Notes: a model not told the origin generated them from the sequence alone. DNA of 64,000 nt from an uncultured Candidatus Saccharibacteria bacterium (GCA_964460855.1 CAYWQH010000005.1:2504-66503); one strand, 5' to 3'; shown: positions 1,613 to 37,756, counted from the stretch's first letter. Numbers and translations are program-made.

Positions 1613-1641
1613 TTGACTATTATGTGCTTATGTTGTATTAT
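1613..1641 (+). promoter_or_regulatory. sigma70-like promoter of GC-rich island 1
   Basis: TTGACT (1613-1618), 17 bp spacer, TATTAT (1636-1641), in AT-rich DNA directly before the GC-rich block. Confidence 0.5.
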
Positions 1642-1760
1642 AACTTTGAATCACCCCGCGTGATGGCCGCCCTGCGACTCAGAGGCGGCAGCGAGCTCGG
1701 TCGCATACCGAGTAGTCGTGTCGGATTCCCCGACACGCAGCCGACCCGCAAGGAGGTACG

Positions 1761-1877
1761 ATGCACCACGCCGACCAGCGCGGCTCGCCGAAGCCGGTGA
1801 GCCACCCGAAACAGTGGACGCATTCGATGACGTGCGCGACGCCGTTCGACGGCGCTCTCCAGACCGACTCGACCTGA
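1761..1877 (+). CDS. Small ORF (38 codons) in GC-rich island 1, unknown function
   Basis: AGGAGG at 1751-1756, 4 nt before the ATG. 35 of 38 third-codon positions are G/C by hand count. Peptide MHHADQRGSPKPVSHPKQWTHSMTCATPFDGALQTDST. Below the ORF-track size cut-off. The same frame stays open and moderately GC3-rich after the TGA. Confidence 0.3.
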   Translation: MHHADQRGSPKPVSHPKQWTHSMTCATPFDGALQTDST

Positions 1878-1973
1878 ACCGCCGGCGCCGCCGGCCGAGC
1901 CAGCAGTGAACACCCTCCACTGAACCAAGTGGACTCACCAACGTTCATTGCCCCCGGCCGGCTGCACAACCAA

Positions 1974-2033
1974 GCGCCCCCCGTCACTTCGACGGGGGGC
2001 GCGCCCCTAACTTAGCCCAACAGGGCTTTTTTT
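1974..2033 (+). terminator. Tandem hairpins ending island 1
   Basis: Perfect 12-bp stem gcgccccccgtc/gacggggggcgc (1974-1985 / 1991-2002). It is followed by gccc-aaca-gggc (2015-2026) and a T7 run (2027-2033). Confidence 0.6.
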
Positions 2034-2034
2034 A

Positions 2035-3129
2035 TTAATAAATGAAGTAGTAGCCGCCCAAGGCGCTAGCGGGTATAACCCGGGTGCTGGTAACGCCCCA
2101 GCCCACGGTGTTCATTTCGGATACTTTAAAACTGCCGTCTGGGAATACTGCTTCTACATAAGCTACATGGCCGAAGTAATCGTGGGGCACGCTCCAGGCT
2201 ACGGCGCCTACTTGCGGCGTCGGGCCGGTAGGCAATCCCGCCCGCTGGGCCAGGATCTTCCAGGTGCTGGCATTACCTAAGTTACTGGGTATCGGATGGC
2301 CGGTAGCCGCCCGCTTATAAGCCACATACCAAGTACAGTAGCCGTAATCATAACCATTGCTGCCGTAAATCGGCGAGTATCCGCCCCACGCAAAACCGGA
2401 GCCTATTGAGGCAACGGCACGGGGCGTAGGTACGGTACCGTTAGGGATCCAAACCTGGCCGCCAACCGGCAGCTGGCCGGATTCGGCGTCGTTAACCACT
2501 ACGAATAGGCCTTTGTCGGACTGGTATTTATTTACGATGCTATCAACCGTATCGCCCGATTTTACGGTGTATACGATGCCGTTAGCCGGGGGAATAAATA
2601 CGTCTTTGCCGGGGTCTATCTTATCTGTGGTCAGGTTTGTATTGGACCATTTAATACTTTGGACGCTAACGTTAAATTTGGCGGCCAAACTAGTAATAGT
2701 ATCGCCGTTTTGGGTGCGGTAGCGGATAATGTCTTTTTTAGACTTTTGGGTGGTGCTGACAATTTGGGGCTTGGCCACAATGCTGTCGTCGCTGGGCACG
2801 ATTGCCAGCTGGGCATTCTCGGAATCGGCCTGGTTGCGCACGGCGGTAGTTTCCGGTAAGTGTACCATTTGGGCCGTTTGCACGGCTATTTCGGCCGAAC
2901 TTAGTTGGTCTAGCGGGTTCTGGGTTTCGCTGAGCGATGCAACCGCCCCCTGAACGGAATTCTGGCGGACCGATTGGCTGGCCGAGCGGTTATTAAACAC
3001 AAAAAAGCCGACAACAAGCAGTAGCGTTATGTTGCCGATAACTAAGCTGGTTCGGATTAACCGGCGTTTGGAACGCTTTTTTAGCTTAGGCAGTGATGGG
3101 ACGCTTTTGCGCCCTTTAGTAAAATTCAT
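2035..3129 (-). CDS. Membrane-anchored LysM / CHAP peptidoglycan hydrolase
   Basis: 364 aa. N-terminal TM; two LysM-like repeats (YRTQNGDTITSLAAKFNVSVQSI, YTVKSGDTVDSIVNKY); C-terminal CHAP-like module (GYCTWYVAYK ... GHVAYVE). Confidence 0.8.
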   Translation of the reverse strand: MNFTKGRKSVPSLPKLKKRSKRRLIRTSLVIGNITLLLVVGFFVFNNRSASQSVRQNSVQGAVASLSETQNPLDQLSSAEIAVQTAQMVHLPETTAVRNQADSENAQLAIVPSDDSIVAKPQIVSTTQKSKKDIIRYRTQNGDTITSLAAKFNVSVQSIKWSNTNLTTDKIDPGKDVFIPPANGIVYTVKSGDTVDSIVNKYQSDKGLFVVVNDAESGQLPVGGQVWIPNGTVPTPRAVASIGSGFAWGGYSPIYGSNGYDYGYCTWYVAYKRAATGHPIPSNLGNASTWKILAQRAGLPTGPTPQVGAVAWSVPHDYFGHVAYVEAVFPDGSFKVSEMNTVGWGVTSTRVIPASALGGYYFIY

Positions 3130-3295
3130 ATGTAACAGTTACGAAACACTTAAAATAAGCATTTCGCCGGCATAATTGTACCAAAATAGGCATTAATAGG
3201 CAACTTGTGGAAGACTTTGCCACCCCTGTTATCAAATAAAAATTACACCTATCAGTTAACATTTGATGCTGATCTGTCAAATAAGTGCAAATTTC

Positions 3296-3397
3296 AGCGA
3301 TCAACTATCAATTCACAACAAATTTTCAATTATCAACGTGCAACTAAAATTGAACGCTGAACGTTTGTTGAACGCTGATAGTTGTGAATTGAAAGTT
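3296..3397. repeat. Intergenic repeat family, copy 1 (abuts the mltG stop)
   Basis: Contains gcgatcaactatca (3297-3310), caacaaattttcaattatca (3316-3335) and ttgaacgctga twice (3350-3360, 3368-3378). Also a 12-bp inverted repeat tcaattcacaac/gttgtgaattga. The words are shared with copies at 34200-34426 and 38487-38675. Confidence 0.6.
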
Positions 3398-4453
3398 TTA
3401 CTGACACAGTTCGTGGCAGTATTTAGCAACGGCCGCTTCGTGTTCGGCCTGGGTATGCGTAAAGTGGGTAACGCCGTCGTCGCCCGATACAAAGAACAAA
3501 TAGTCGGTGTTGGCCGGGTTGGCCACGGCTTCTAAAGAAGTGCTGGATATAGTGCCGATCGGGCCCGGCGGCAAGCCTTTGGCCGTATGGGTGTTGTACG
3601 GTGAATCGACCGTTAAGCTGCCCGGTTTGCCGGCCAGCACGCCGGCATAATAAGCCGTTACGTCCGAACCCAGCGGAATCCCCTGGCGCAGCCGGCTCAA
3701 AAATACCTGGGCGACAATCGGCCGGTCATTTATATTGGCTACTTCTTGTTCGACGATAGATGCCAAAGTTACGCACTGGTATATCGATAGCTTCTGGTTG
3801 GCGCAGCCAGCTTTAATATCGGGAGTCAGGTGTTTGTTCATTTCGGCCAGCGAAGCAGTAACTATCGTACTAAGCGGCGTGTCGTCGGCCTTGTCGTACG
3901 AATCGGGGTATAAAAAGCCTTCTAGCGTAGCCGTTTTGGGCAAATAAATCAGCGCCGGGCTGTTGGGGTAATTGGCCGGTTTGAGGGCTTCGTTTATTTG
4001 CTGCTGGCTAAAGCCGGCTTCTAGGAACTGCTTGTTGAGCTGGTCCGGCAGCCGCTTGCCGGGCAAAATGGTAAATAAATTGCGGGCTATGTCACCTTTA
4101 ACCATCTTATCTACTATCTCCTTGGTGCTCATGGCCGGGTCTAAAGTATAGGTACCCGCTATTAGTTTATCGCGGACTTCCTGGTCGCGGATGTACCACT
4201 CAAATGCTTTGGAACTGCGGATAAGTTTGGCGTTTTGTAAATTTTTGCCAATTTGCTTGGCGCTGGTGCCTTTTTCGACGGTGAAATATACGATTTTAGT
4301 GCTGTCGCTTACCGGCTGTAGGCTGTTTTCGTACTGGTGGCGGATAAACCAGGTAATTAACAAAAATGCCGCGCCCACCCCCACTAGGATAATGACGCCC
4401 ATGCTTAGTAACGGCCTTCGCCGTGAAGGCCGGCGGTTGAACCGGTATTTCAT
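3398..4453 (-). CDS. mltG: Endolytic murein transglycosylase MltG (YceG family)
   Basis: N-terminal TM; LASIVEQE, SDVTAYY, YNTH..GLPPGPI motifs. I chose the start at 4453 (MKYRFNRR) because it gives an ATGA overlap with the ruvX stop. The ORF track allows a start at 4471. Confidence 0.85.
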   Translation of the reverse strand: MKYRFNRRPSRRRPLLSMGVIILVGVGAAFLLITWFIRHQYENSLQPVSDSTKIVYFTVEKGTSAKQIGKNLQNAKLIRSSKAFEWYIRDQEVRDKLIAGTYTLDPAMSTKEIVDKMVKGDIARNLFTILPGKRLPDQLNKQFLEAGFSQQQINEALKPANYPNSPALIYLPKTATLEGFLYPDSYDKADDTPLSTIVTASLAEMNKHLTPDIKAGCANQKLSIYQCVTLASIVEQEVANINDRPIVAQVFLSRLRQGIPLGSDVTAYYAGVLAGKPGSLTVDSPYNTHTAKGLPPGPIGTISSTSLEAVANPANTDYLFFVSGDDGVTHFTHTQAEHEAAVAKYCHELCQ

Positions 4454-4860
4454 AAACGATAATCTTCCCATTTTGCCGGGTCCAGGCTTAAAAAATCACC
4501 CAAAATTATGGCCGCCGCTTCGGCGTCCGGCCCGGCGGCTGAGCGCGGCTGCTGCTCGGCCAATTGGGTGGTAGCGGCTTCGTCCTGCCAGTAAAGCGGA
4601 ACGTTTACGGATTGTTTGAAAGCCTCAGCCCACTGGCGGACCCAAGCCGTTTGGCCGGTGTCCTGGCCCTGTAAGTTGCGGGGCAAGCCAATAACAATGG
4701 CGCTGGCCGAGTGGTCTTTAACTAACTGGCCGGCTATTGCCGGGAGTTGGCTGGTCGGTATAGTGCTGAGCGGTTCGGGAATTTTAGCGACGGTGCTAGC
4801 CCGGGCTAGCCCGGTGCGCTGCTGGCCTACATCCAGTGCCAGTAGCTGCTTAGCCTCCAC
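4450..4860 (-). CDS. ruvX: YqgF/RuvX-type putative pre-16S rRNA nuclease / Holliday junction resolvase-like
   Basis: 136 aa. LALDVGQQRTGLA and IVIGLPRNLQGQDT motifs. Confidence 0.85.
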   Translation of the reverse strand: MEAKQLLALDVGQQRTGLARASTVAKIPEPLSTIPTSQLPAIAGQLVKDHSASAIVIGLPRNLQGQDTGQTAWVRQWAEAFKQSVNVPLYWQDEAATTQLAEQQPRSAAGPDAEAAAIILGDFLSLDPAKWEDYRL

Positions 4861-6592: not shown

Positions 6593-7899
6593 ACCCTAAG
6601 CATCCTATTGAGTTTATCTTTGACTTTAGACGGCTCATCGTCGGTTACCCCGGGCTGTTCGATGGTATCCATACCAACCCTTAGCAGGCCCATGGCCGTA
6701 ATATAGGTGTGGTCGCTGACATCGCCGGTGGCATCGGTAATGCCAACCACTTGGTCGGGGTTGATGTGCTGCACCAGCGGTTTGCGGGTAAAAGCCGCGT
6801 TGCGGTGCCAGTCACTTTCGCTTAATCGCCGCATTAATAAATCTAAGCTGGAGCCGCCGCCGCACAATAAAATATGGTTTGGCAGGTGGTCGAGTTTAGT
6901 GAACTCGCCCAGGGCTAGCTCTACGCCATGCATCCAAACTTTTAGGGTTTTATCGAGGGCTGTTTCGATGGTTTCAATTTTGTTATGCGGCACCCGATTA
7001 GTGCTGAGCCCCACTTTTAAAGCTTCGGCTTTGTCGAAATCGGTATCCAGTTCGCGCTCGATGCTGCGGGTAAAGGCCCGGCCGCCAATGCCGAACATTT
7101 TTGTGCCTTCCACGCCGCCTTCATTAACGATAGCGATGTCGGTTGTGCCGCCGCCGACGTCCATTAATATGGCGCTCATGTTTTGGTTGGGGTCGTTGCC
7201 GATTACCGAACGGGCCACGGCGAACGGTTCGGCCGCAACGGCCAATAACTCAAGGTCAAGCTCAGCAGCCGTTCGCTCCAGCGCCCCAATGTGGATCATC
7301 GGCGCGAATGCCGTATAAAGTTCGACTAAAACGTTTTTGCCCTGGAAGCCTACCGGGTTGGTGACTTTATATCCATCAATATCAATGCGGACCAAAGCGC
7401 TGTTAACCAGCCTAACCTCTACCTCTTTGCCGCCCAGCTCCCAGGCTAGCTCTTTGCGGGCGGTAGCTTCGGCTTTTTGCTGTACCAAGCCAATTATTTT
7501 TTGGACTTCGGCGATGTCTAATTCTTTGGTGGGGTTCTTACGGTTGAAACGGACCGTGGTTGTAGTGCCTTTAACCAGCTCACCGGCAATGCCGATAATT
7601 GCTGTTCGGGCGCTAACGCCAGCTTGCTGTTCGGCTTCGGTTAAAGCCCGGTCGCAATTTTGGACCACGCCGGCAATATCAGAAATAGCGCCGGCTTGCA
7701 TGTCGGTTAATTCCTGGTGCGCGCGGCCTACGCCAATAACTTCTACTTCGTCGCCCACTACTCGGCCAACCAGAGCTTTGACAAACTCGGTTCCGATATC
7801 CAGGGCAACCATGTATTTTTCGAGCGGCGCGCCGCCTTTGGCCTCGCCCTTGCCCGCGGGCAAATTCGAAGCCAATGATTTAACTTTTCCAAGAAGCAT
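6589..7899 (-). CDS. ftsA: Actin-fold ATPase, FtsA-like cell division protein
   Basis: 436 aa. ALDIGTEFVKALVG, DVGGGTTDIAIV and LCGGGS phosphate/adenosine motifs; short basic amphipathic C-terminus. Confidence 0.7.
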   Translation of the reverse strand: MLLGKVKSLASNLPAGKGEAKGGAPLEKYMVALDIGTEFVKALVGRVVGDEVEVIGVGRAHQELTDMQAGAISDIAGVVQNCDRALTEAEQQAGVSARTAIIGIAGELVKGTTTTVRFNRKNPTKELDIAEVQKIIGLVQQKAEATARKELAWELGGKEVEVRLVNSALVRIDIDGYKVTNPVGFQGKNVLVELYTAFAPMIHIGALERTAAELDLELLAVAAEPFAVARSVIGNDPNQNMSAILMDVGGGTTDIAIVNEGGVEGTKMFGIGGRAFTRSIERELDTDFDKAEALKVGLSTNRVPHNKIETIETALDKTLKVWMHGVELALGEFTKLDHLPNHILLCGGGSSLDLLMRRLSESDWHRNAAFTRKPLVQHINPDQVVGITDATGDVSDHTYITAMGLLRVGMDTIEQPGVTDDEPSKVKDKLNRMLRV

Positions 7900-7953: not shown

Positions 7954-7982
7954 TTGACACCTTAATTTCCTTAAGGTAATAT
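7954..7982 (+). promoter_or_regulatory. sigma70-like promoter of cassette 2a with a spacer palindrome
   Basis: TTGACA (7954-7959), 17 bp, TAATAT (7977-7982). The spacer is the palindrome accttaa-tttcc-ttaaggt (7959-7977). Confidence 0.5.
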
Positions 7983-8014
7983 TTAGCGATTCGTTCCCGA
8001 CACAAGGAGGAGCA

Positions 8015-8263
8015 GTGCTCGCCGATACCAGTTTGGCGTTCCGTACCTACCGGATCTATGGCGAGATCCGGGCGGACGGCACCCACATCGGCACGATGTC
8101 CGCCTGCAACGGCTTGCATCACGCGCTCTGCCGAACGGAGCAGACGTGGCGCGATGGCCAGATCATCGGCGCTACGCCACTCGGCCTCGAGATTCTCGGT
8201 GGGTGCGATGGCAACTGCGCCGACGGCCTCACCCAGAATGGTGGCATCCGCTTCGCGCTGTGA
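8015..8263 (+). CDS. Small GC-rich ORF (82 aa), unknown function (cassette 2a)
   Basis: AAGGAGG at 8004-8010, GTG start at 8015. 68 of 82 third positions are G/C by hand count, clearly more than in the other frames. No family recognised. Confidence 0.55.
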   Translation: MLADTSLAFRTYRIYGEIRADGTHIGTMSACNGLHHALCRTEQTWRDGQIIGATPLGLEILGGCDGNCADGLTQNGGIRFAL

Positions 8264-8271
8264 CGAACGAC

Positions 8272-8295
8272 GGCCCCCGGCGAAAGCTGGGGGCC
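8272..8295 (+). terminator. GC hairpin after the cassette 2a ORF
   Basis: ggcccccggc-GAAA-gctgggggcc: 10-bp stem (one G-U pair) with a GNRA loop. No U-tract follows. Confidence 0.4.
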
Positions 8296-8332: not shown

Positions 8333-8361
8333 TTGACATTATTAAGCTTAAGCTGTATAAT
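8333..8361 (+). promoter_or_regulatory. sigma70 consensus promoter of cassette 2b
   Basis: TTGACA (8333-8338), 17 bp, TATAAT (8356-8361). The spacer contains the perfect 10-bp palindrome ttaagcttaa (8342-8351). Confidence 0.55.
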
Positions 8362-8484
8362 ATACCAGTTCAATCAAGAGGTTGGACGTACCTTAAGGCA
8401 AGAGAGTACCTCAGGCGTTCATTATTCAGTAAAGCGTTTTACTGCGTTATGAACGTCTGAAAACAACCGATCGAAAGGAAGATC

Positions 8485-17604: not shown

Positions 17605-18891
17605 TTAGAAGCCAGTGTCAGATATAAAGACATCGCTCTTTGCATTAGTGTCGCTAGCAATTAAATTAGTAGACCCGCTTGAGTAAGCAGCTTTTTTGCC
17701 ATCTGTAGTAACTGAAATTCCTCCAGAATTTGCGTTTCCGGCTACTCCTCCTGATGATATCGATAGTAACTGAGTAGTAGCATTTGCAACATCGCGTACA
17801 TATATTTCGAAATTTCCACCTGTACTAGTTGTTACAAGATTTGTTGCACCACTGCTGAAAATTACATAGCCTAAATCACTAGGAGTGACTGCTCCTACAG
17901 TATCATCTCCTAATGTACCCCCTGTTGATTTATCTAATAGTGAAAAGCTATTACCAAGCCGATCATAAACATAACCATGCATCGTAGATGTATCAGGTAC
18001 TCCCGAAGTTAATGTATCAGCCAATGAACGAATGCCAATATAATTACCGTTGCAAGACATATTCATTGCTTGGCTGTTTGCATTACCGCTTTGAGTTAGA
18101 TTTGTAATTTTAACGCCATTTCTTAGATCAAATAAGAAAACATCGTTTACGCCGTTAGTATCGCTTGCTGTTAAGTTTGTTGCAGCAGAAGTAACTACTA
18201 CCAGAGATCCATCACAACTAATATCAGTGAGTGTTACGAATCCATTGGCCTGCGTACCACCAGATTGATCTAGAAGAGTTAGAGTGTTCAGTTGCATATC
18301 TTTTACATATAAATGCTCTATGGCGCTAGTGGTAATTGTAGTGCCTAAATTTGTTGCTTGAGTAGTAAAATATGCGAATCTTCCATCGTTACTAATTCGC
18401 GCATTCATAACTGGCATATTTGCCTCAACTCCTGAGGAATTGGTAGTAACTTCTATTACACTGCCTGTATTTCTGTTGTATTCGTATATTTGATTATTAA
18501 AATCCCACCTGAACAGTGCGTATAAGCCGTTTTGACTAATTCCGGCAGCGAAGCTATCTCCCCCTGTAAGCTGCGTTCCTGTCGTAGATAAACTTATTCT
18601 AGTAACAGAATTAGTTGTTAAATCCTTTAAAAATACGTCCGCTTTACTATTAGTATCACCACTTACCATATTGGTGGCGCTTGAACCAAATTCAATGTAC
18701 TTTCCATCTGCTGACATAAAACTACTATTTGTATTATCGTTACCTTGTGTCCCTGAGCTATCAACGCTTACTCGAGTATTTGTGCCTGGTACTGTAGCGA
18801 AAACAGAAACTTTATTTATTATTGAAGGACTTAATATTGCAATTAGCAATAAGCTTGTAGCAGCTAGGCTTTTAAATTTTGTTTTGCGCAT
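17605..18891 (-). CDS. Secreted beta-propeller (TolB/PD40-like repeat) protein, AT-rich gene
   Basis: Start trimmed to MRKTKFKSL (GGGAGGG upstream). Signal peptide. At least five repeats of S.ATNL...DTN...DVF..D. The gene is visibly AT-richer (about 40% GC) than its neighbours. Confidence 0.7.
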   Translation of the reverse strand: MRKTKFKSLAATSLLLIAILSPSIINKVSVFATVPGTNTRVSVDSSGTQGNDNTNSSFMSADGKYIEFGSSATNMVSGDTNSKADVFLKDLTTNSVTRISLSTTGTQLTGGDSFAAGISQNGLYALFRWDFNNQIYEYNRNTGSVIEVTTNSSGVEANMPVMNARISNDGRFAYFTTQATNLGTTITTSAIEHLYVKDMQLNTLTLLDQSGGTQANGFVTLTDISCDGSLVVVTSAATNLTASDTNGVNDVFLFDLRNGVKITNLTQSGNANSQAMNMSCNGNYIGIRSLADTLTSGVPDTSTMHGYVYDRLGNSFSLLDKSTGGTLGDDTVGAVTPSDLGYVIFSSGATNLVTTSTGGNFEIYVRDVANATTQLLSISSGGVAGNANSGGISVTTDGKKAAYSSGSTNLIASDTNAKSDVFISDTGF

Positions 18892-18972
18892 AAATACCCT
18901 CCCCATTTGCTTAGTTTATTAAGCATAAGCATAAATTTGAATTGCTAAAGTTAGAATTGCTATTGACATAAA

Positions 18973-18999
18973 AAATCGGGCGCCCGAAACGCCCGATTT
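18973..18999. terminator. 10-bp hairpin between paralog B2 and the beta-propeller gene
   Basis: aaatcgggcg-cccgaaa-cgcccgattt. Confidence 0.5.
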
Positions 19000-19020
19000 A
19001 AGGAGAAGCTTAATTTTTAA

Positions 19021-20391
19021 CTAGTATGTTGCAGTCGCAACGTAGGTGCTGGTTACACCATAAGAACCGGTTGGCGTTGTGATGTTAGCCGTGGCGGCGT
19101 ACCGCAGGACAATGGCTTCGTCGTCAACAACCGTTGAGGAATTTGCAATTGGTTGCGCGGTTCCTGATTCGTCCCAGGCAAAGCCGTTAGCGACGCCGTA
19201 GGCTTCGGTGCCAACTCCACCTGAACCTAAGTAATTGGTTGCTGGCTCTAGTTTGCATGTGTTGGGGCTAGCAGTATAGCTACATACATAAGATGTAGTA
19301 CTGCCATTATTTATCCCACCTACTGTCATGCCAAACTTTTCTACGCCGGCAGTAAATGTTCCCTGCGTGGTACCCTTCGCGTCAATACATTGGTCGGTAT
19401 TAACGTTACCGGCGTTACAAGTTGAGCCCGCCACACGTAGAGTTCCTAAGTGGTTTGAACCCGTGTCTTGCTCGGCAAAATATACTACCTGTACCCCATT
19501 AGCAGCATTGGTTCTGACCATAGCAGCACCGTTACATGTATTACCGTTAGTAGATGTAGACACTGGGCTTGTGTAGACAGAGGAACTATCTAGGACACCA
19601 AGGTCGATCGTCGTACCGCTTGCGCCACAACTTGCTGCGCCAGTGAACGCTGCCGAACAGTCGGAGGCTACCGAAGTAGTGGCATCGTTTACTGTAGTAC
19701 CGCCGACGCAGAACTGTAATTGTTCTTGCACGCGGGCGTTTACGGTCAGTTGGTTAGCCGTGCTCATAGCCACGCCACCGTCGTCTAGGTGAGTGCCCGG
19801 AGTAGTTGAAGTATAGTCGTCAGCACCAGTGCTGTTACCGAAGGTGCCGTCTCCAGCCGCGTATGTCAAAATGCGACCGTAGAAACTTCCTGGCGTACCA
19901 CTGCTAGAAGCAGTTCCAGAGGGGTTAGTGGCAGTGAATGACAATGTAATTGTGTCGCCGGAAGCACAGCCAACTACACCTGTGGCGTGTCTTAGCAATA
20001 ATCTACCAGTCGATGTAGAGTGAGAATCAACTGTAAAGGCTGTTGGACCTGCCGTACATCCGCCGGTACCCGTTACGTTTATAGTACTGGATGTTGGGGT
20101 GTTGGTAACACCATTTGTAGTGCTGCAAGCGGTGCCAATCAACGGACTATCTTGGCAAATTTCTACCACGATACCCTTAATAGTAGTTGTGCTAGCAACC
20201 CTAAACGATACCGCATAAGTAACGCTTGATTGGCTTAGTTTAGAACTTGATATTGTTATGCTTCTATGTGATAGCTGTGCTGCAGCTGATTTCTGCGGTT
20301 GTACCAATGCTGGTACTGCTAGTGCCATTACGAACAGAAAAGCGGTTCCAAAAGCTAATACTCTTCGGGGCACATGTCGTGCGAGTAGCAT
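19021..20391 (-). CDS. Secreted Thr/Gly/Cys-rich surface protein, paralog B2
   Basis: 456 aa, collinear with B1 over its full length (AAQLSHRSITISSS ... GSYGVTSTYVATATY). AGGAGA upstream of the ATG. Confidence 0.75.
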   Translation of the reverse strand: MLLARHVPRRVLAFGTAFLFVMALAVPALVQPQKSAAAQLSHRSITISSSKLSQSSVTYAVSFRVASTTTIKGIVVEICQDSPLIGTACSTTNGVTNTPTSSTINVTGTGGCTAGPTAFTVDSHSTSTGRLLLRHATGVVGCASGDTITLSFTATNPSGTASSSGTPGSFYGRILTYAAGDGTFGNSTGADDYTSTTPGTHLDDGGVAMSTANQLTVNARVQEQLQFCVGGTTVNDATTSVASDCSAAFTGAASCGASGTTIDLGVLDSSSVYTSPVSTSTNGNTCNGAAMVRTNAANGVQVVYFAEQDTGSNHLGTLRVAGSTCNAGNVNTDQCIDAKGTTQGTFTAGVEKFGMTVGGINNGSTTSYVCSYTASPNTCKLEPATNYLGSGGVGTEAYGVANGFAWDESGTAQPIANSSTVVDDEAIVLRYAATANITTPTGSYGVTSTYVATATY

Positions 20392-23123: not shown

Positions 23124-23260
23124 GCAAACGATATTGAATTTTGACTAGCCAGGTGCCGCGCCGAAAAAATCCCTAAAGAGTCTTCTTCGCATTATTTAAG
23201 ATTGCTCAGAAGAGATTTTCGGCTTTACTCGGCAATATAAGTCAAAATTCATCTGTTTGC
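23124..23260. repeat. Long imperfect nested palindrome downstream of 22106..23095
   Basis: Nested arms: gcaaac/gtttgc (23124-23129 / 23255-23260), gaattttgact/agtcaaaattc (23136-23146 / 23240-23250), gccgaaaa/ttttcggc (23160-23167 / 23216-23223), tcttct/agaaga inside. Confidence 0.5.
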
Positions 23261-23359: not shown

Positions 23360-23388
23360 TTGCTATATTCTTTTAATTATTGTATTAT
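23360..23388 (+). promoter_or_regulatory. sigma70-like promoter of cassette C
   Basis: TTGCTA (23360-23365), 17 bp, TATTAT (23383-23388). Confidence 0.5.
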
Positions 23389-23422
23389 ATGTTATTCGGC
23401 AGTACCGAAACCCCTGGAGGGA

Positions 23423-23731
23423 ATGGTGGGTACGAATTCGAACGGAAAGACTTTGCAGGAACTGAACACTGAGTACCTGCGCTGGGAAAAGATCCGCAAG
23501 TACGGCATTATCGTACACGCGATAACTGTGTGGTCCTTCATCACGATCATCTTCATTCTGGGCGCCGCGCTGCATGTGGTGAACGCCAACGGCTTCCTCC
23601 ATTCGCCCATCATGAACTTCTATGTAGTGGTGGCGCTCGGGAGCCTGGCGATGGTACTCGTGGCGAATCACAGGAGACTCGACGTCAAGAAGAAGTTCGA
23701 GAGCCGCCGCGGAAGGATCACCAGTGTGTGA
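23423..23731 (+). CDS. Small 2-TM membrane protein (102 aa), unknown function (cassette C)
   Basis: SD ctggaggg, ATG at 23423. MVGTNSNGKTLQELNTEYLRWEKIRKYG, then helices IIVHAITVWSFITIIFILGAAL and FYVVVALGSLAMVLVA, then a basic tail. GC3-rich. Confidence 0.6.
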   Translation: MVGTNSNGKTLQELNTEYLRWEKIRKYGIIVHAITVWSFITIIFILGAALHVVNANGFLHSPIMNFYVVVALGSLAMVLVANHRRLDVKKKFESRRGRITSV

Positions 23732-23745: not shown

Positions 23746-23774
23746 GGGTGAGGGCGAACATGCGGCCCTCACCC
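23746..23774 (+). terminator. GC hairpin after the cassette C ORF
   Basis: gggtgagggc (23746-23755) / gccctcaccc (23765-23774): perfect 10-bp stem. Confidence 0.5.
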
Positions 23775-23803
23775 GCCCACCGGTACTGCCGAATTTTTAT
23801 AAT

Positions 23804-26236: not shown

Positions 26237-26240
<4 letters not shown>

Positions 26241-31933: not shown

Positions 31934-31952
31934 AAGGCCCGGTACAACTTAC

Positions 31953-32729: not shown

Positions 32730-32730
32730 G

Positions 32731-34194: not shown

Positions 34195-34199
34195 CCGTT

Positions 34200-34426
34200 A
34201 TATCTTATCAAATCTGTTAGTTCGAGTCTTGGTAAACTTTCAGCTCTCAACTTTAATATCTCAACAAATTTTCAATTATCATTTATCACTTCACTATTGC
34301 ACAATTTATTTAACATTTGTCATTTGATATTTGAGTAAATGCAAAATGAAAAATAAATGAGCGATGATAGATGATAAATGAAAGCTGATTGCTTGCTGAA
34401 CGCTGACAGTTGATCGTTGAAAGCTT
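34200..34426. repeat. Intergenic repeat family, copy 2 (abuts the trehalase stop)
   Basis: caacaaattttcaattatca (34262-34281) is identical to 3316-3335. gcttgctgaacgctgacagttgatcgttgaaagctt (34391-34426) is the near-exact reverse complement of 38487-38524. Confidence 0.6.
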
Positions 34427-35652
34427 TAAAGCCAATCCTTTGCAAAACGTACAAATATTGCATTGGTCCAACCGAAACCGGTTTGGTTGGGGTATACACC
34501 TTCTACCGGTTCTTTCTTAGGATGGACGACATTATACTTTTCGATAAATTCGTGGTGCTTATTAAACCAGTCCAGGTTGGTGGCCAGCCACTTTTGGGCG
34601 ATACGGCGGGCGTCGCTTTCGTAGCCGTACTTTTTGAGCCCTTCGACCACCATAAACTGCAGCGGCGCCCAGCCATTAGGATAAGCCCATTGGATTGGTA
34701 TGGATGACGGCCAGCTGCTCATAATGCTGTTTTCGGTAGTTGATAAGCCGCCGCTATGTTCGAAACGCTTTAATTGCTTGGCCATCCGCTGGGCTTGCTG
34801 CGGCGTAGCCAGGCCGGCCCACATTGTATAATAGCCAGCCACCGAAGAAACCCGCCCCAAACGCTGCTTTTTGTAATTGTAGTCGTAATAAAAGCCACGG
34901 AGCTTGTCCCACATTAATTCGTACATGTTTTCGCGGCGTTTTTTTGCTACCTTGTGCCACTTAAGGGCCTCGGCGTCATTGCCTAAAATTTCGGCAGCTT
35001 TGGCAAAATCCATTTCGTATTTGTAAAGCAGCGCGTTTAAATCAACCGGTAAAAAGTCGAGGCATTTACGGCCAAACCGGTTGGTCATGTCCCAGCCGCT
35101 TTCGGCCTCGGCTAAATTATGAAGCATATTTATATCGTAATAGCGGCTCAGTCCCTTATAAACCCGCCTCCAGTTAGGGTGTTGGTCGAACATCCAAACA
35201 TGCTCATATTCTTGTTTAGCCAATTCGATCCGCTTGGCCAGCCATTTATTGCTAAAACCGCCCAAGTCGTAAACGTCAAAAATAAAGCTGGTTAAAAACG
35301 GCGGCTGGGAACGGCCGGTAAAGTATGTGCGGCTGGCGTTAGGAATTACATGGAAGCGCTCGAGCATGGCGCACAAATTATCGAGCATTCCGGCAACCAG
35401 CTCTTTATGCTCCTGGTCCAGCAAGCCCTGGATAATAAAATAGGTGTCCCAGTAATACTGTTCGTTAAAACCAAACGGCGCTGTTTCGTTATAGCCGGGC
35501 ACAAGATATTTATGCGGCAGCCCGACTAAAGTATGGTCGTCTTTGGGGTGGTAGCGCGTGAGCTTAGGCCAATACGCGTCTATATACTTTAAAGCCGGGT
35601 CTATATTTTGGGCGCTTAAAGCCTTATAGCTTTTGCTTTTTAGCAGTAACAT
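34426..35652 (-). CDS. Trehalase (glycoside hydrolase family 37)
   Basis: 408 aa. QYYWDTYF, GRSQPPFL, AESGWD, DLNALLY, YPNGWAPLQ, EKYNV, GFGWTNA. Confidence 0.85.
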   Translation of the reverse strand: MLLLKSKSYKALSAQNIDPALKYIDAYWPKLTRYHPKDDHTLVGLPHKYLVPGYNETAPFGFNEQYYWDTYFIIQGLLDQEHKELVAGMLDNLCAMLERFHVIPNASRTYFTGRSQPPFLTSFIFDVYDLGGFSNKWLAKRIELAKQEYEHVWMFDQHPNWRRVYKGLSRYYDINMLHNLAEAESGWDMTNRFGRKCLDFLPVDLNALLYKYEMDFAKAAEILGNDAEALKWHKVAKKRRENMYELMWDKLRGFYYDYNYKKQRLGRVSSVAGYYTMWAGLATPQQAQRMAKQLKRFEHSGGLSTTENSIMSSWPSSIPIQWAYPNGWAPLQFMVVEGLKKYGYESDARRIAQKWLATNLDWFNKHHEFIEKYNVVHPKKEPVEGVYPNQTGFGWTNAIFVRFAKDWL

Positions 35653-35882
35653 AAACCCTCGGTTATTTCTTTATGCTAGCTCTACTGTAAGGTCGGCCGG
35701 CACCTATCGTCAAGGACTTTAAAGCTTATGCTGATGACAAGTGCCACAGCCCGCAATATTTACACAGGTATGCTTTGAGCTTCGTGCCTTTTTGGTAGAG
35801 CAAGGTTGTGGCTGCCGCATCGGCCTGGCGCCGGGTATCAAATACTAGTTTGCCGTGGCAAGGCAGCTCCGTTTGGGGCTCC

Positions 35883-36056
35883 TCAGCCTTCAACGGATTT
35901 GCCAATTTTATATCCGAGCCATAAACCAGCTAAACTGCCGACGGCCGAAAATAAGATACTGGCCGCGCCCAAAAAGTTATGGTCGCCCCATAGCACTGGA
36001 ATATAGGCGCCAACTAAGCCGCCAACGGTTATGCCTATCCAGATAAGCATTTTCAT
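35883..36056 (-). CDS. Small membrane protein (57 aa), GlsB/YeaQ-like Gly-rich 2-TM
   Basis: Below the ORF-track cut-off. MKMLIWIGITVGGLVGAYIPVLWGDHNFLGAASILFSAVGSLAGLWLGYKIGKSVEG. Host-like composition. Confidence 0.5.
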   Translation of the reverse strand: MKMLIWIGITVGGLVGAYIPVLWGDHNFLGAASILFSAVGSLAGLWLGYKIGKSVEG

Positions 36057-36070
36057 AATGGCATTATAGC

Positions 36071-36499
36071 CTATATTGCTTTAGCTAACCTTTTGGCATG
36101 GGCAGCTAAATCGGCTTTAACAACTCTTGAAGAATCAATAATAACTACTTCTACCGCTCCACTAACCGCATTATGTCCAAAGGCACCTAAAGAATCATGG
36201 GTGCGCATAATTTGAGTTGGCGCTTCGCCTAAAGGCGAATCATCAATTTCCATATGCGGCGCTAAGCCGTCTTCAATATTCAGCCAAACTAACGGTGAGC
36301 CAACATACGTATATTCATTTGGTGCTTGATGGCCGTCGCGCGGAGAAACTATTTTCTGGATAAATTCTACTTTAACGAAAATCCCGAACAGTTTGCGGGC
36401 ATCATCTTCAAGTAATTCTTCAGGGGTTAAAAGCCGTTCGTCCTGGGTTTGCGGCAAGGCTGATTCGGTAGACTGTATTGATTCGATTATTTGGTTCAT
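36071..36499 (-). CDS. Hypothetical protein (AT-richer gene)
   Basis: Start trimmed to MNQIIESIQ (ATG at 36497-36499). The longer ORF-track version runs into the cassette D1 tail. Confidence 0.5.
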   Translation of the reverse strand: MNQIIESIQSTESALPQTQDERLLTPEELLEDDARKLFGIFVKVEFIQKIVSPRDGHQAPNEYTYVGSPLVWLNIEDGLAPHMEIDDSPLGEAPTQIMRTHDSLGAFGHNAVSGAVEVVIIDSSRVVKADLAAHAKRLAKAI

Positions 36500-36514
36500 A
36501 AACTTATTGGAGTT

Positions 36515-36918
36515 TTGGGAGGAAGTTTTTCGGGCGGGGGCCAGGCAATCGCTAAATCGCCCGGCCCCGTTGCCCATCCGCTACTGGCAGTGCACCGGCG
36601 TGACGTGCCAGCCGATGTCATCCAGGATGGCGTTGACATTGAGCACGTCGCCAAACAGGTCACGGACGTACTCCACGAACCTGTCGGCCTTGAAGTATTC
36701 GATTCCGCTGTGCTCTTTGTGGCCGTGGCCGTAGTCGAGCACATGGTATGCGACTTGCTCCAGGATCTGGTAAAGCTCCTGGTTGTCGCAGACCAGCTCG
36801 AGCTCTTGGCGGATGCCGCGAGCGGCATCGGTCCTGCCGAGCTTGACGGCGTCTTCCAGTTTGACGCCTAGCGTCACGGCTTGTTGTTGGTCACAAACCA
36901 TCAAGGGCTTCCTCCCAA
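36515..36918. repeat. 11-bp perfect inverted repeat bracketing cassette D1; the 3-prime arm is an anti-SD
   Basis: ttgggaggaag (36515-36525) and cttcctcccaa (36908-36918). On the minus-strand mRNA the 5-prime arm UUGGGAGGAAG contains the SD. The 3-prime arm lies just after the hairpin at 36537-36568. Confidence 0.75.
36581..36901 (-). CDS. Small acidic GC-rich ORF (106 aa), unknown function (cassette D1)
   Basis: GGGAGGA SD, ATG at 36899-36901. MVCDQQQAVTLGVKLEDAVKLGRTDAARGIRQELELV... No family recognised. Confidence 0.55.
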   Translation of the reverse strand: MVCDQQQAVTLGVKLEDAVKLGRTDAARGIRQELELVCDNQELYQILEQVAYHVLDYGHGHKEHSGIEYFKADRFVEYVRDLFGDVLNVNAILDDIGWHVTPVHCQ

Positions 36919-37013
36919 GTTGTAATGTGCTCCGTCCACGTTATTGCGGACAGAACCGGGTACTCAAATCTCTTCATTTCCCCGCCAAGAGATTTGTATT
37001 TAAATCCACTGGC

Positions 37014-37196
37014 CAGAAAACGAAAACCGGACTGTTGTAGCCCGGTTCTCTGTTTTTCTAATTTTTGATTGGCTTGGCGATATTTTTCGGAACTACAACT
37101 AAAGTGCTCGCCTAAGGAGCACAGTATTGATAATTCCAATCTTTTCCCGCGTAAAAGCCATGTATTTTTTATAACGCAGCGGGGCTCTCGGGTCAA
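37014..37196 (-). promoter_or_regulatory. Promoter plus about 150-nt AT-rich leader/sRNA ending in an intrinsic terminator, upstream of D1
   Basis: Minus strand: TTGACC (37191-37196), 17 bp, TATAAA (37168-37173). Hairpin aaccgg/ccggtt (37025-37047) followed by UUCGUUUUCU. The upstream segment aGTTGTAG can pair with the terminator loop CTACAAC. Confidence 0.4.
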
Positions 37197-37245
37197 TAGT
37201 AAAGTTACAAAACGTTAGTGTTTTGTGTATAAGTCTGAGTTAATT

Positions 37246-37678
37246 TCCGCAAGTACCCGGGCTGCCAGCGGCGCGGTCGTCCATGACCGCGCCGCCAGTT
37301 GGCAGTTCAGCGAGCAGCTGTGAAGGGCACGAGCGTCTCGGGCTGCGACAGCGCGAGTAGCAGGTAGTACGGGTTCACGCCGTCTTCGTACTGGTCCTTG
37401 ATGGACTGCAGCTCGTCGAGCTCGCGGCACGCCTGCGGGTAGCGGTGCATGTCGTCGGTAACGACGTGCACGTGCGGCGACTCAGCGGCCGTCTTGGTGA
37501 ACATCGCGAACTGGTCGATCTCCCGCCGCGTGGCGGTGATCTGGTCTTCCAGCCTCGACACGAAGTCCTCGCGAGCGAAATTTCCGGTTCGCGGGTCCTC
37601 AGCATCGAGCAGGTCAGCCAGCTGCTGATGCGCGTCCTGCGTCACTGGTTCTCCTTCTGTTCGAGGGGTACTTGCGGA
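37246..37678. repeat. 13-bp perfect inverted repeat bracketing cassette D2
   Basis: tccgcaagtaccc (37246-37258) and gggtacttgcgga (37666-37678) are exact reverse complements. The 5-prime arm lies about 10 nt upstream of the SD on the minus-strand mRNA. Confidence 0.8.
37307..37645 (-). CDS. Small acidic GC-rich ORF (112 aa), unknown function (cassette D2)
   Basis: GAAGGAGA SD, GTG start at 37643-37645. MTQDAHQQLADLLDAEDPRTGNFAREDF... Followed by an 11-bp GC hairpin (37268-37295). Confidence 0.55.
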   Translation of the reverse strand: MTQDAHQQLADLLDAEDPRTGNFAREDFVSRLEDQITATRREIDQFAMFTKTAAESPHVHVVTDDMHRYPQACRELDELQSIKDQYEDGVNPYYLLLALSQPETLVPFTAAR

Positions 37679-37728
37679 GTACCGGTAGCAAACTCCCCTT
37701 GCTGGGGAGTGCGACCATGTTGCAAATT

Positions 37729-37756
37729 ACTATATCATACTAATGTTTTATGTCAA
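37729..37756 (-). promoter_or_regulatory. sigma70-like promoter of cassette D2
   Basis: Minus strand: TTGACA (37751-37756), 16 bp, TATAGT (37729-37734). Confidence 0.5.

Follow-up and report, generated by a model that had tools for sequence, protein, structure and literature searches.

Six GC-rich blocks (C1–C6) in a Saccharimonadales (TM7) genome are best explained, at somewhat better than even confidence, as lineage-specific, fast-evolving native accessory genes for small proteins that are expressed as protected, end-paired mRNAs. The blocks lie in the window, which is the whole 64,000-nucleotide stretch of DNA that was analysed, and all six of the small-ORF blocks that a sequence-only reading had placed in intergenic gaps are present. 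Their unusual GC-rich, end-paired transcripts look like a maintained lineage trait, and neither like a toxin system nor like imported DNA of high GC content. Each cassette would be its own transcription unit with a strong resident sigma-70 promoter, which is putative in the case of C5. The transcript would hide its 5' end in a terminal stem-loop (C1 and C3) or by long-range pairing with the 3' end (C3–C6; weakly C2), a GC hairpin would cap the 3' end, and in C3 a predicted hammerhead is positioned so that cleavage would release the 3' end 9 nt past the closing arm. This build probably shields the mRNA from decay that depends on the 5' end or proceeds by 3' exonucleases, and it probably defines a 3' end beside convergent housekeeping genes. 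An arm that is the Shine-Dalgarno sequence (C5) or abuts it (C4, C6) probably gates translation. An envelope or host-interaction role under diversifying selection is our guess for the small 2-TM and acidic helical proteins.

Gene slots and base composition

The gene order g11049-AlaRS-FtsA-like-g4850-YceG-CHAP-Obg is kept in relatives. The six blocks sit in gaps between housekeeping genes, and these slots are hypervariable within the conserved surrounding order, with cassettes variably present or absent between relatives. In relatives the CHAP-Obg gap measures ~70-235 bp, against 515 bp in the window, and 84 loci of relatives have AlaRS|FtsA-like gaps of between 16 bp and 7.3 kb. The C1 promoter points away from Obg, which occupies 239-1519 on the - strand, and the C1 terminator directly adjoins the CHAP/LysM stop codon at 2035. 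The features of the cassettes are collected in Table 1.

Table 1. Features of the six cassettes, with positions in the window. Promoters, RNA structures and the ribozyme motif are predicted.
Feature	Position	Strand	Remark
C1 promoter, TTGACT-17-TATTAT	1613..1641	+	10/12 consensus
C1 ORF, 38 aa, AAGGAGG Shine-Dalgarno	1761..1877	+	GC3 0.90
C1 GC hairpin, perfect 12-bp	1974..2002	+	
C1 terminator, AGCCC-aaca-GGGCT + T7, canonical intrinsic	2014..2033	+	abuts CHAP/LysM stop
C2 promoter, TTGACA-17-TAATAT	7954..7982	+	10/12 consensus
C2 ORF, 82 aa, GTG start, AAGGAGG Shine-Dalgarno	8015..8263	+	GC3 0.82
C2 3' GC hairpin, 10 bp with one G·U	8272..8295	+	fold
C3 promoter, TTGACA-17-TATAAT	8333..8361	+	12/12, best in 40 kb; with leader in nine related loci (nhmmer)
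C3 5'-terminal stem-loop, GUUCAAUC-aaga-GGUUGGAC, at predicted transcription start	8368..8387	+	
C3 5' closing arm, TTAAGGCAAGAGAG	8393..8406	+	exact repeat, shuffles, fold
C3a ORF, 81 aa, 2-TM	8485..8730	+	GC3 0.85; TM-like segments
C3b ORF, 94 aa, 2-TM	8760..9044	+	third-position GC 0.70-0.83; TM segments
C3 3' GC hairpin, 12 bp with one G·U	9053..9080	+	fold
C3 3' closing arm, CTCTCTTGCCTTAA	9086..9099	+	exact repeat, shuffles, fold
C3 type III hammerhead ribozyme motif, predicted cleavage after C9108	9101..9155	+	RF00008 full-length, 38.8 bits
C4 promoter, TTGCTA-17-TATTAT	23360..23388	+	9/12 consensus
C4 5' closing arm, at predicted transcription start, 8 nt upstream of Shine-Dalgarno	23394..23407	+	
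C4 ORF, 101 aa, 2-TM, basic; alternative ATG 23423	23426..23731	+	third-position GC 0.73-0.87; TM segments
C4 GC hairpin, perfect 10-bp	23746..23774	+	
C4 3' closing arm, then TTTTT	23781..23794	+	
C5 5' arm, UUGGGAGGAAG = Shine-Dalgarno itself	36908..36918	-	
C5 ORF, 106 aa, acidic, helical	36581..36901	-	GC3 0.80 over 36581-36904
C5 3' hairpin, 14 bp with G·U pairs	36536..36567	-	fold
C5 3' arm, anti-SD (CUUCCUCCCAA)	36515..36525	-	
C6 promoter, TTGACA-16-TATAGT with upstream TG	37729..37756	-	11/12 consensus
C6 5' closing arm, 10 nt upstream of Shine-Dalgarno	37666..37678	-	
C6 ORF, 112 aa, acidic	37307..37645	-	GC3 0.85
C6 GC hairpin, perfect 11-bp	37268..37295	-	
C6 3' closing arm	37246..37258	-	

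The GC content of the six intervals, from C1 to C6, is 0.63, 0.62, 0.57, 0.53, 0.60 and 0.61, and that of the window is 0.500. Against the initial estimate of ~60-65% GC, C3 and C4 are thus less GC-rich overall. Calculation bears out the GC3 excess, which is about 0.8-0.90 in the cassette ORFs versus 0.56±0.08 in 52 host ORFs, and the ratios claimed for 1761-1877 (0.90) and 8015-8263 (0.82) are exact. The third-position values for C3b and C4 are from sliding 90-nt windows. The 3-periodicity is clean and confined to the cassette ORFs. In C1 it is found only around 1761-1877, and the remaining GC-rich body (~1650-2005) is a hairpin-rich UTR. GC-rich DNA starts at the predicted transcription start, and the enrichment breaks off at the promoter within a few nucleotides. 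GC-richness and heavy predicted base pairing are features of the transcript and not of the DNA around it.

Predicted transcript ends and end pairing

The best matches to the sigma-70 consensus within the first 40 kb are those of the predicted cassette promoters. A near-consensus -35/-10 had been proposed for all six cassettes, and this stands for C1, C2, C3 and C6; C4 has only 9/12, and no promoter adjacent to C5 was found, the nearest candidate being upstream of a terminator at 37050-37022. The GC hairpins, all described as perfect, are so in C1, C4 and C6, whereas those of C2 and C3 contain one G·U each and the 14-bp stem of C5 needs G·U pairs. The proposed lack of a U-tract is borne out only in part: C1 has a canonical terminator after its hairpin, and in C4 TTTTT follows the 3' arm.

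The four inverted repeats of 11-14 nt in C3, C4, C5 and C6 are exact at the positions first given for them. Repeats of these lengths were matched by 0-3 of 1000 shuffles, the flanks of 50 native genes contain inverted repeats of at most 10 nt, and only 0.7% of 2000 random segments have one of at least 11 nt, which places the cassette repeats far beyond chance. The arms form the closing helix in both the MFE and the centroid predictions for C3, C4, C5 and C6, which supports the earlier idea of a fold-back at the RNA level. C1 and C2 have no long inverted repeat and no significant closure; the MFE structure of C2 pairs 7991-7996 (UCGUUC) with 8265-8270 (GAACGA). When ORF bodies were compared with codon-permutation controls, the z-scores were -0.3 to -4.9, and those of native genes were -1.0±1.4. 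The predicted folding of the ORF bodies is therefore only modestly stronger than that of native genes, and much of the extreme z-score thus comes from the UTR hairpins and the GC3 periodicity. Sense versus antisense folding energies gave a mixed outcome.

Perfect 11-14 bp inverted repeats around bodies of 370-680 bp that differ from their flanks in composition could also be the terminal inverted repeats of non-autonomous, MITE-like mobile elements, or they could come from chimeric assembly. The probability of either is close to negligible. The arms differ in every cassette, as had been noted, and each is single-copy; they are located inside the transcription unit, downstream of the promoter. 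Reading of the flanks at the arms of C3 and C4 revealed no target-site duplication, and there is no transposase beside the cassettes. A blastn comparison of the window cassettes with other loci gave no match apart from a 24-nt hammerhead core. The assembly is not chimeric: C1, C5 and C6 are identical, junctions included, in the separate Logan assemblies of SRR9179560, SRR9179561 and SRR9179563.

The C3 hammerhead motif starts 2 nt past the 3' arm and features a CUGACGA + GAAA core, a UC cleavage site and all three stems. Its score is below the Rfam gathering score of 48.5, with an E value of 1.6e-6 when 1.3 kb is searched and 0.0027 when 40 kb is searched. A descriptor search of ~2.1 Mb of related loci gave one further hammerhead match, in locus L149, and L166 proved to carry the identical core as well. 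This core, identical over 23 nt, ends a cassette with a GC3 of 0.98 in these two loci, the L149 copy giving only a weak type I match (18.6 bits). The identical core is also present in seven viral contigs, in most of them directly behind a GC hairpin.

The fold-back had been compared with hok, and in a hok-like type I toxin-antitoxin system 5'/3' pairing would hold the full-length mRNA inactive until 3' processing activates it, and an antisense RNA would act as repressor. The fold-back helices of four cassettes, the C5 Shine-Dalgarno sequence sequestered by an anti-SD, the three small membrane proteins and the predicted 3' processing element in C3 are all consistent with such a system, which is nevertheless very improbable. 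The ORFs encode 81-112 aa and two of the proteins are acidic and soluble, searches of Pfam, NCBIfam and PADLOC gave no toxin-family match, and no antisense promoter of at least 10/12 is present inside any cassette. Additionally, the C3 hammerhead would cut downstream of the 3' arm, so that the fold-back helix would survive processing and not be removed by it. Membership in the type I toxin family is thus not borne out.

Protein homology and the origin of the GC3 excess

Prediction of TM segments agrees with the protein classes first assigned, three 2-TM and two acidic soluble. Four ORFs were compared with large protein collections and two more with phage or plasmid records only, and nothing was found outside this genome. 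The C4 and C6 ORFs each matched only themselves among 5.8 billion proteins, and the C5 ORF has no true homolog among 1.84 billion cluster representatives. The tblastn searches gave no match for the C2 ORF in plasmid records or for the C3b ORF in phage records, and C5 and C6 have no significant match in phage records or viral contigs. The AF2 single-sequence model of the C5 protein has a pLDDT of 83, and Foldseek gave no match for it in the PDB.

Diverged orthologs of the window's own cassettes were not found, and one orthologous pair is available in relatives. The L149 and L166 cassettes have GC3 values of 0.98 and 0.96 and an amino-acid identity of 0.64, and a search of 5.8 billion proteins with the lipoprotein-like ORF of L149 gave a single homolog, which occupies the corresponding slot of L166. 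Nucleotide identity at codon positions 1/2/3 of the cassette ORF is 0.72/0.86/0.87, and the flanking genes feature a position-3 identity of 0.59-0.72 with an amino-acid identity of 0.86-0.98. Third positions of this cassette are more conserved than those of the flanking genes while the protein diverges fast. This pair shows that the GC3 excess is a maintained property and not a residue of recent transfer, and we infer the same for the window's own cassettes. The excess would be due either to selection on codons or the RNA or to a recombination hot spot with GC-biased conversion.

A high-GC donor had been offered as the source of the cassettes, and recent horizontal transfer, for example from actinobacterial hosts or their phages, would account for GC3 values of 0.8-0.9 in a 50% GC genome. 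The excess would then not yet have been ameliorated, and the small genes would have brought along Shine-Dalgarno sequences of their own and terminators lacking a U-tract, as the GC hairpins without U-tracts in several cassettes suggest. Saccharibacteria in culture live as epibionts on Actinobacteria and possess natural competence, and the presence/absence of cassettes between relatives is consistent with transfer. The RSCU of the cassettes correlates at 0.93-0.94 with Rhodococcus genes versus 0.57 with host genes; however, this likeness is not diagnostic of Actinobacteria because it is generic for any GC-rich gene set, the correlation with every other set tested being 0.79-0.91. Recent import from a high-GC donor is unlikely in view of the searches above (1.8 to 5.8 billion sequences for C4, C5 and C6), the lack of GC3 decay in the L149/L166 orthologs and the start of the GC-rich DNA at the predicted transcription start. 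The homologs found for related cassettes all sit in the corresponding slot of other Saccharimonadales.

The C3-type leader and possible cassette exchange in relatives

The C3 promoter and 5' stem-loop are also present in L121, L125, L142, L015, L108, L165, L140, L141 and L124. The stem-loop is predicted to fold on its own in 9/9 family members tested, and the stem sequences differ. Where DNA is available, arrays of high-GC3 small ORFs without similarity to the window ORFs are located downstream of this promoter/leader; L015 has no convincing ORF behind it and L140 is cut off. L125 features an 11-nt closure of its own.

Conserved flanks around such dissimilar cargo would fit an integrase-free cassette exchange, in which the promoter/5' stem-loop and a 3' module serve as homology arms and natural transformation swaps promoterless cargo between Saccharimonadales. 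This explanation, which is possible at a low probability, overlaps with that of native end-paired genes and differs from it on the cause of the GC excess, here a by-product of GC-biased gene conversion at a hot spot, and on cargo turnover. A 3' motif consisting of a GC hairpin and then a CGCUCUCACA-like sequence is common to L142, L165, L125, L015 and C3, and in L124 the same GGCCAAGCGGGGCCGTGAA element comes after each of two array ORFs. The spread of gap sizes and the high dN with constrained GC3, a possible product of biased conversion, also agree with exchange. On the other hand, C1, C4, C5 and C6 are in other slots and have leaders without obvious similarity to that of C3, and the edge of the GC enrichment is sharper than expected for conversion tracts. 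No integrase or attC-like sites were found, and cassette exchange is therefore an analogy only.

Native genes behind resident promoters agree with a further comparison of relatives. The promoter is located directly upstream of Obg in L149, and in L166 a cassette is inserted behind the same promoter. This pair shows the predicted AT-rich promoter as resident DNA behind which a cassette may or may not be present.

Composition and anatomy of the cassettes

The six GC-rich small-ORF cassettes, C1 to C6, which a sequence-only reading had picked out of gaps between housekeeping genes, are all present. Their GC content is 0.53-0.63 per interval, where roughly 60-65% had been estimated, and the GC content of the window is 50.0%. 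C3 carries two ORFs, C3a and C3b, and the other cassettes carry one each. The proposed excess of G/C at third codon positions was borne out, as the called ORFs have a GC3 of 0.80-0.90 versus 0.56 ± 0.08 in 52 host ORFs, and the counts of 35/38 and 68/82 third positions made for two of them are correct. Sliding windows over C3b and C4 give a third-position GC of 0.70-0.87, and frame plots feature a strong 3-periodicity in exactly the called ORF frames. Three sequencing runs (SRR9179560, SRR9179561, and SRR9179563), each assembled separately in Logan, gave the same sequence for C1, C5, and C6, so chimeric assembly is excluded for practical purposes. The cassettes are real and non-random.

A near-consensus promoter had been assigned to every cassette. 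This holds for C3 (12/12 consensus positions), C6 (11/12), and C1 and C2 (10/12 each), whose promoters are the top sigma-70 matches within 40 kb, whereas the C4 promoter matches at 9/12 and a consensus scan gave no verifiable promoter adjacent to C5. The minus strand between C6 and C5 features a promoter-like TTGACC-17-TATAAA and, about 120 nt downstream of it, a hairpin plus U-tract terminator; this element may encode a small RNA or act as an attenuator located before C5, and its Rfam match is at noise level (rli52, E = 0.9). The 3' GC hairpins, described previously as perfect and free of a U-tract, are perfect in C1, C4, and C6, while C2 and C3 contain one G·U pair each and the C5 stem contains G·U pairs. 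Additionally, the hairpin of C1 precedes a canonical U-tract terminator.

The four reported inverted repeats that join the leader to the 3' end, the arms of C3, C4, C5, and C6 (11-14 nt), are exact and were equalled in 0-3 of 1000 shuffles. The flanks of 50 native genes share at most 10 nt of this kind, and 0.7% of random segments of 250-750 nt reach 11 nt. C1 and C2 have no long 5'/3' inverted repeat. A separate perfect 12-nt inverted repeat is located in the spacer upstream of the C4 promoter, which is AT-normal.

The ORFs encode 38-112 amino acids. The assignment to protein classes was confirmed, with two TM-like segments in each of C3a, C3b, and C4 (81-101 aa) and acidic soluble products for C5 (pI 4.9) and C6 (pI 4.5); the C1 product is hydrophilic. 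Searches of all seven ORFs with Pfam, PHROGs, NCBIfam, and PADLOC gave nothing over threshold. A single-sequence model of C5 features five helices (pLDDT 83, pTM 0.77) and the C6 model is weaker (pLDDT 64); Foldseek against the PDB returned no match with E below 0.3 for either model. The coordinates of the cassettes and of the other features discussed are collected in the table.

Positions of the cassettes and associated features (window coordinates unless a related locus is named)
Feature	Position	Strand
C1	1613-2033	
C2	7954-8295	
C3	8333-9099	
C3a ORF	8485-8730	
C3b ORF	8760-9044	
C3 3' arm	9086-9099	
Weak antisense promoter site	8513-8485	
Hammerhead motif	9101-9155	+
AlaRS gene	9153-11030	-
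Three successive large ORFs	16081-20391	-
Middle ORF of the three	17605-18906	-
12-nt inverted repeat near C4	23135-23146 / 23240-23251	
C4	23360-23798	
C5	36515-36918	
Element between C6 and C5	37022-37200	-
Promoter-like site of the element	~37197-37169	-
Terminator hairpin of the element	37050-37022	-
C6	37246-37756	
18-bp hairpin and A/T run	50749-50788	
tmRNA gene	50784-51185	-
209-aa ORF	58094-58723	-
ORF array in related locus L124	~850-2121	-
C3-type unit in related locus L015	7756-8549	-

Predicted end pairing and the hammerhead motif

The whole predicted transcripts fold with z = -4.0 to -9.8 relative to dinucleotide shuffles, compared with -0.7 ± 1.05 for native 400-nt gene segments. 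When the ORF bodies were set against codon-permutation controls, z was -0.3 to -4.9 versus -1.0 ± 1.4 in native genes. The idea that whole ORFs are exceptionally structured was dropped, as this signal is mostly gone under codon permutation, and the modest values place the robust structure in the UTR hairpins and closing helices rather than in the coding bodies. A comparison of sense and antisense MFE for strand-specific RNA selection was mixed.

The earlier suggestion that the two ends of the transcript fold back on each other in four cassettes is right at the level of modeled RNA architecture, since the arms form the outermost helix in both the MFE and the centroid structures predicted for C3, C4, C5, and C6. 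Folding predicts that all six transcripts are paired almost from their first nucleotides: C1 and C3 have a terminal stem-loop there, C6 has a structured leader, and in C4, and weakly in C2, the closing helix takes up the 5' end. In C5 the Shine-Dalgarno sequence (SD) itself (UUGGGAGGAAG) makes up the 5' arm, and the 3' arm is the matching anti-SD, without a mismatch; the arm of C4 and that of C6 stop at most 10 nt upstream of the SD. Among the loci of related genomes, L125 has its own 11-nt 5'/3' closure, and in L121 and L165 the conserved leader motif UUUGAAGCC pairs with the sequence right after the last stop, each pairing being individually non-significant.

An Rfam scan at gathering thresholds found tmRNA as the sole family, and scanning by E-value yielded noise matches only for the regions of C1, C4, and C5/C6. 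A perfect 18-bp hairpin with an A/T run overlaps the 3' end of the tmRNA gene and is probably its terminator.

The E-value scan of the C3 region revealed a full-length type III hammerhead (RF00008) motif on the plus strand, which was absent from the sequence-only reading. The motif scores 38.8 bits, under the Rfam gathering threshold of 48.5 bits, with E = 1.6e-6 in a 1.3-kb search and 0.0027 in 40 kb. Its core is complete, with CUGACGA, CGAAA, and the GCUC/U cleavage site aligning to the RF00008 core, and it features a stem I of 6-7 bp, a stem II of 4 bp, and a stem III of 6 bp, with the open end at stem III. It extends from 2 nt past the C3 3' arm to the AlaRS stop codon. Compared with RF00008 hammerheads, which are known from bacteria and phages, the C3 motif has minimal stems, and it closes an accessory mRNA beside a long-range helix in a Patescibacteria chromosome. 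The motif is a candidate ribozyme, and a cut at the predicted site, after C9108, would give a 3' end made up of the GC hairpin, the closing helix, and a 9-nt tail.

A descriptor search of ~2.1 Mb of related loci returned one other hammerhead match, in L149, where the copy has weak Rfam support. The 23-nt core with stem II (CTGACGAGTCCAAAAGGACGAAA) is identical in the window, in L149, and in its relative L166, and in the latter two the motif stands at the end of a cassette with a membrane ORF of GC3 0.98 (L149) or 0.96 (L166). Seven IMG/VR viral contigs also carry this 23-mer, which in most of them directly follows a GC hairpin. Judging from this recurrent placement, a hammerhead core after GC hairpins would be consistent with a role in 3'-end formation. 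The literature searched contained nothing relevant on hammerheads in Saccharibacteria, on hypervariable islands, or on the SRA runs.

Variable slots and a conserved leader with changing cargo

The window encodes Obg, a CHAP/LysM hydrolase, YceG, an FtsA-like protein, ATP synthase subunits, and tmRNA. Searches with AlaRS and the FtsA-like protein led to MAGs of Saccharimonadales (Saccharibacteria/TM7) as the nearest genomes, with at most 77% amino-acid identity, and genome and metagenome scans for strain-level empty sites gave only relatives within this same limit. The gene order g11049-AlaRS-FtsA-like-g4850-YceG-CHAP-Obg is kept across Saccharimonadales relatives. The CHAP-Obg gap, which contains C1, is 515 bp in the window versus ~70-235 bp in relatives, and C2 and C3 share the AlaRS-FtsA gap, whose length in 84 loci varies between 16 bp and 7.3 kb. 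The slots are bordered by the genes for AlaRS, the FtsA-like protein, CHAP/LysM, Obg, ATP synthase, and an F420-type oxidoreductase. The AlaRS itself is short (625 aa), and its residues 1-464 share 62-63% identity with Rhodococcus contigs (L060, L068), about equal to the identity with other Saccharimonadales; as a sequence likeness this may reflect an ancient transfer or merely strong conservation.

An nhmmer profile of the C3 promoter and leader identified the same module in nine further loci. The module is located in or beside the AlaRS-FtsA gap (~1.8 kb from FtsA in L140) and is always divergent from the FtsA-like gene. All nine members that were folded, C3 and eight relatives, feature an 8-13 bp stem-loop at the predicted start, and the stem sequences differ between members. 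Most members have an SD-like GAGGU(G/U) in the loop or the 3' strand of the stem-loop. Such an arrangement, a hairpin within a few nucleotides of the predicted start together with an SD-like sequence, is analogous to the ompA leader stem-loop of E. coli and to STAB-SD of Bacillus thuringiensis cryIIIA, which are said to stabilize mRNAs from the 5' end.

The cargo downstream of the module is an array whose small ORFs number from 1 to 5 or more; their GC3 exceeds the local host level by up to 0.2-0.35 in L121, L124, and L125 and by less in L141. The window ORFs have no tblastn match in any locus with the C3 module, and in blastn the window cassettes match other loci only in the 24-nt hammerhead core. 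C1 showed no homology to the cassettes in the same slot of L149 and L166. An all-versus-all comparison of high-GC3 ORFs across loci was swamped by off-frame ORFs of conserved genes and yielded nothing further than the L149/L166 pairs. In L124, high-GC3 ORFs (GC3 up to 0.91) stand in tandem, and two of them have the same element, GGCCAAGCGGGGCCGTGAA, behind them, which recalls cassette arrays. The unit in L015 has a C3-type promoter, a 5' stem-loop, a 3' GC hairpin, and a terminator, and ~600 nt inside it are without a convincing ORF or Rfam match; a non-coding RNA is its possible cargo.

The promoter appears to be resident at these sites. L149 features a TTGAAN-17-TATTAT promoter directly upstream of Obg, and L166 has the same promoter followed by an extra GC-rich cassette of ~480 bp with a 96-aa 2-TM ORF. 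The presence of one promoter with and without a cassette indicates that the promoter is chromosomal and that it is the cassette downstream which comes and goes.

Origin of the GC excess and comparison with known systems

The sequence-only reading had offered cassettes bounded by terminal inverted repeats (TIRs) and acquired from a high-GC donor as one explanation. The codon usage of the cassettes does resemble that of Rhodococcus genes (correlation 0.93-0.94); however, all other GC-rich sets tested gave correlations of 0.79-0.91 as well, so the argument that codon usage proves an actinobacterial origin was rejected. C4, C5, and C6 found nothing beyond themselves in collections of 1.8 to 5.8 billion sequences, and a full HMMER search with C5 gave two weak matches to long repetitive proteins that were judged spurious. 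By tblastn, C2 had no hit in plasmid records and C3b none in phage records, and neither phage records nor viral-contig scans gave a significant match to C5 or C6. The lipoprotein-like ORF of the L149 cassette has as its sole homolog found an ORF in the same slot of L166, another Saccharimonadales.

The L149/L166 pair also bears on whether the GC excess decays. The flanking genes have amino-acid identities of 0.86-0.98, position-3 identities of 0.59-0.72, and a GC3 of 0.55 (CHAP), whereas the cassette membrane ORF has an amino-acid identity of 0.64 and identities of 0.72, 0.86, and 0.87 at positions 1, 2, and 3, with GC3 at 0.98/0.96. Its changes are mostly at first positions and leave the residue hydrophobic, while the protein diverges quickly. 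Third positions are thus kept G/C more tightly than the neutral sites of neighbor genes. Within this aligned pair, which consists of related cassettes and not the window's own, the pattern appears to be the opposite of post-transfer amelioration. With no donor homologs found and GC3 not decaying, the donor explanation is not sustained.

The mobile-element part of the same proposal fares no better. The arms are exact and paired at the two ends of four cassettes, but the four arm pairs are unrelated in sequence, so that no TIR is shared, each cassette is single-copy, and the sequences bordering the C3 and C4 arms show no direct repeats of a target-site duplication. The arms are internal to the transcription unit, the C3 5' arm coming after the promoter and the 5' stem-loop that are conserved in relatives, and the indel boundaries in L149/L166 are not inverted repeats. 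REP/BIME elements, a first guess, were dropped after megablast against E. coli genomes gave no match.

Type I toxins of the hok kind were the other explanation proposed. Like the fbi/tac pairing of hok, the predicted folds join the 5' end of the full-length mRNA to its 3' end, and small membrane proteins are among the products. Hok/Sok-type toxins are small and hydrophobic, typically under about 60 aa, whereas the cassette ORFs are larger and some products are soluble and acidic. There is no toxin-family match, and the processing geometry is wrong, as the predicted cut after C9108 lies downstream of the 3' arm and would leave the fold-back helix intact, whereas 3' processing of hok mRNA takes the fold-back element away and thereby activates translation. 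On ORF size and type and on processing geometry, membership in this toxin class was not upheld. Hok/Sok systems also have a cis-encoded antisense RNA gene that overlaps the toxin mRNA; a consensus promoter scan, which may miss an sRNA, gave one weak antisense site (9/12), within C3a, and none of at least 10/12 within the cassettes. A likeness in RNA architecture is also offered by icaR of Staphylococcus aureus and hbs of Bacillus subtilis, which reportedly feature 5'UTR-3'UTR pairing, in icaR with an anti-SD in the 3'UTR. The cassettes share the predicted long-range helix between the leader and the 3'UTR of one mRNA and, in C5, a perfect anti-SD; in contrast, their perfect 11-14 bp helices would close nearly the whole transcript and occur in four of six neighboring units.

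As genetic units the cassettes resemble the phage 'morons' of Hendrix and colleagues, which are said to be promoter-ORF-terminator units of deviant base composition between conserved genes. They too are self-contained transcription units with one or two small, mostly orphan ORFs and a composition unlike their flanks, and they occupy gaps in a conserved, syntenic gene order, where some relatives have a cassette and others lack it. However, they reside in a TM7 chromosome rather than a phage, the promoter is apparently resident and not carried in, the GC excess is maintained over divergence, and 5'/3' closure and a hammerhead motif are added. Integron arrays likewise feature one strong upstream promoter (Pc) before a variable array, here of 1 to 5 or more mostly orphan ORFs, with a structured element behind the ORFs, the same one behind two ORFs in L124. 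Scanning the flanking neighbors of the slots revealed only housekeeping genes and no IntI integrase with attI, and on this account the cassettes do not qualify as integron cassettes. At 24-32 nt, the 3' hairpins are plain GC stem-loops that fall short of a typical attC in length, and those in the window are unrelated to one another in sequence, unlike in integron cassettes.

The most economical reading is that the cassettes are a class of native, fast-evolving accessory genes, and the known kinds behind them are accessory 'moron-like' units and end-paired mRNAs. Strong promoters would express them as protected mRNAs, the protection coming from a 5' stem-loop or 5'/3' closure together with the 3' GC hairpin. 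A hammerhead or a terminator would form the 3' ends beside convergent housekeeping genes, and the SD would be gated in C5 and possibly in C4 and C6. The GC excess may result from selection on RNA or codons, or from GC-biased conversion at a recombination hot spot, and the cassettes provide a test case for distinguishing such selection from GC-biased gene conversion in bacteria. What is unusual is that the GC3 excess is held while the protein evolves rapidly, that a conserved expression platform carries swappable orphan cargo, and that a hammerhead motif is located at the 3' end. No paper describing such loci in Saccharibacteria was found in the literature searched.

Saccharibacteria are ultra-small epibionts whose accessory genome is mostly unannotated and whose dealings with their hosts are largely obscure. 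A highly improbable extension is that the cassettes are tuned to a high-GC host cell, to which the transcripts or the encoding DNA would be delivered and there translated as effectors. The generic GC-rich codons, the GC hairpins without U-tracts, the presumably nuclease-resistant end-paired mRNAs, and the fast-diversifying small membrane or acidic proteins prompted this idea; if it were true, selection would be holding GC3 near 1 despite the epibiont's own 50% GC. For the native accessory genes preferred here, the cassettes form a definable locus class in fixed hypervariable slots, which can be found by position, GC3 outlier, and leader motif. In the AlaRS/FtsA-like slot a conserved strong promoter and 5' stem-loop would drive orphan small membrane or acidic proteins, and the cassette loci are natural candidates for host-interaction or envelope factors. 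The predicted mRNAs closed by a 5'/3' helix, one of them with a hammerhead motif, would lend themselves to work on RNA decay and on how 3' ends form in Patescibacteria.

The window also contains compositional outliers of the other sign. Three large minus-strand ORFs of 490, 433, and 456 aa follow one another without a Pfam match, and the middle one (GC 0.38, GC3 0.25) is a low-GC island, the compositional opposite of the cassettes. The 209-aa ORF, with a GC3 of 0.39 and likewise without a Pfam match, is a second low-GC outlier among the host genes.
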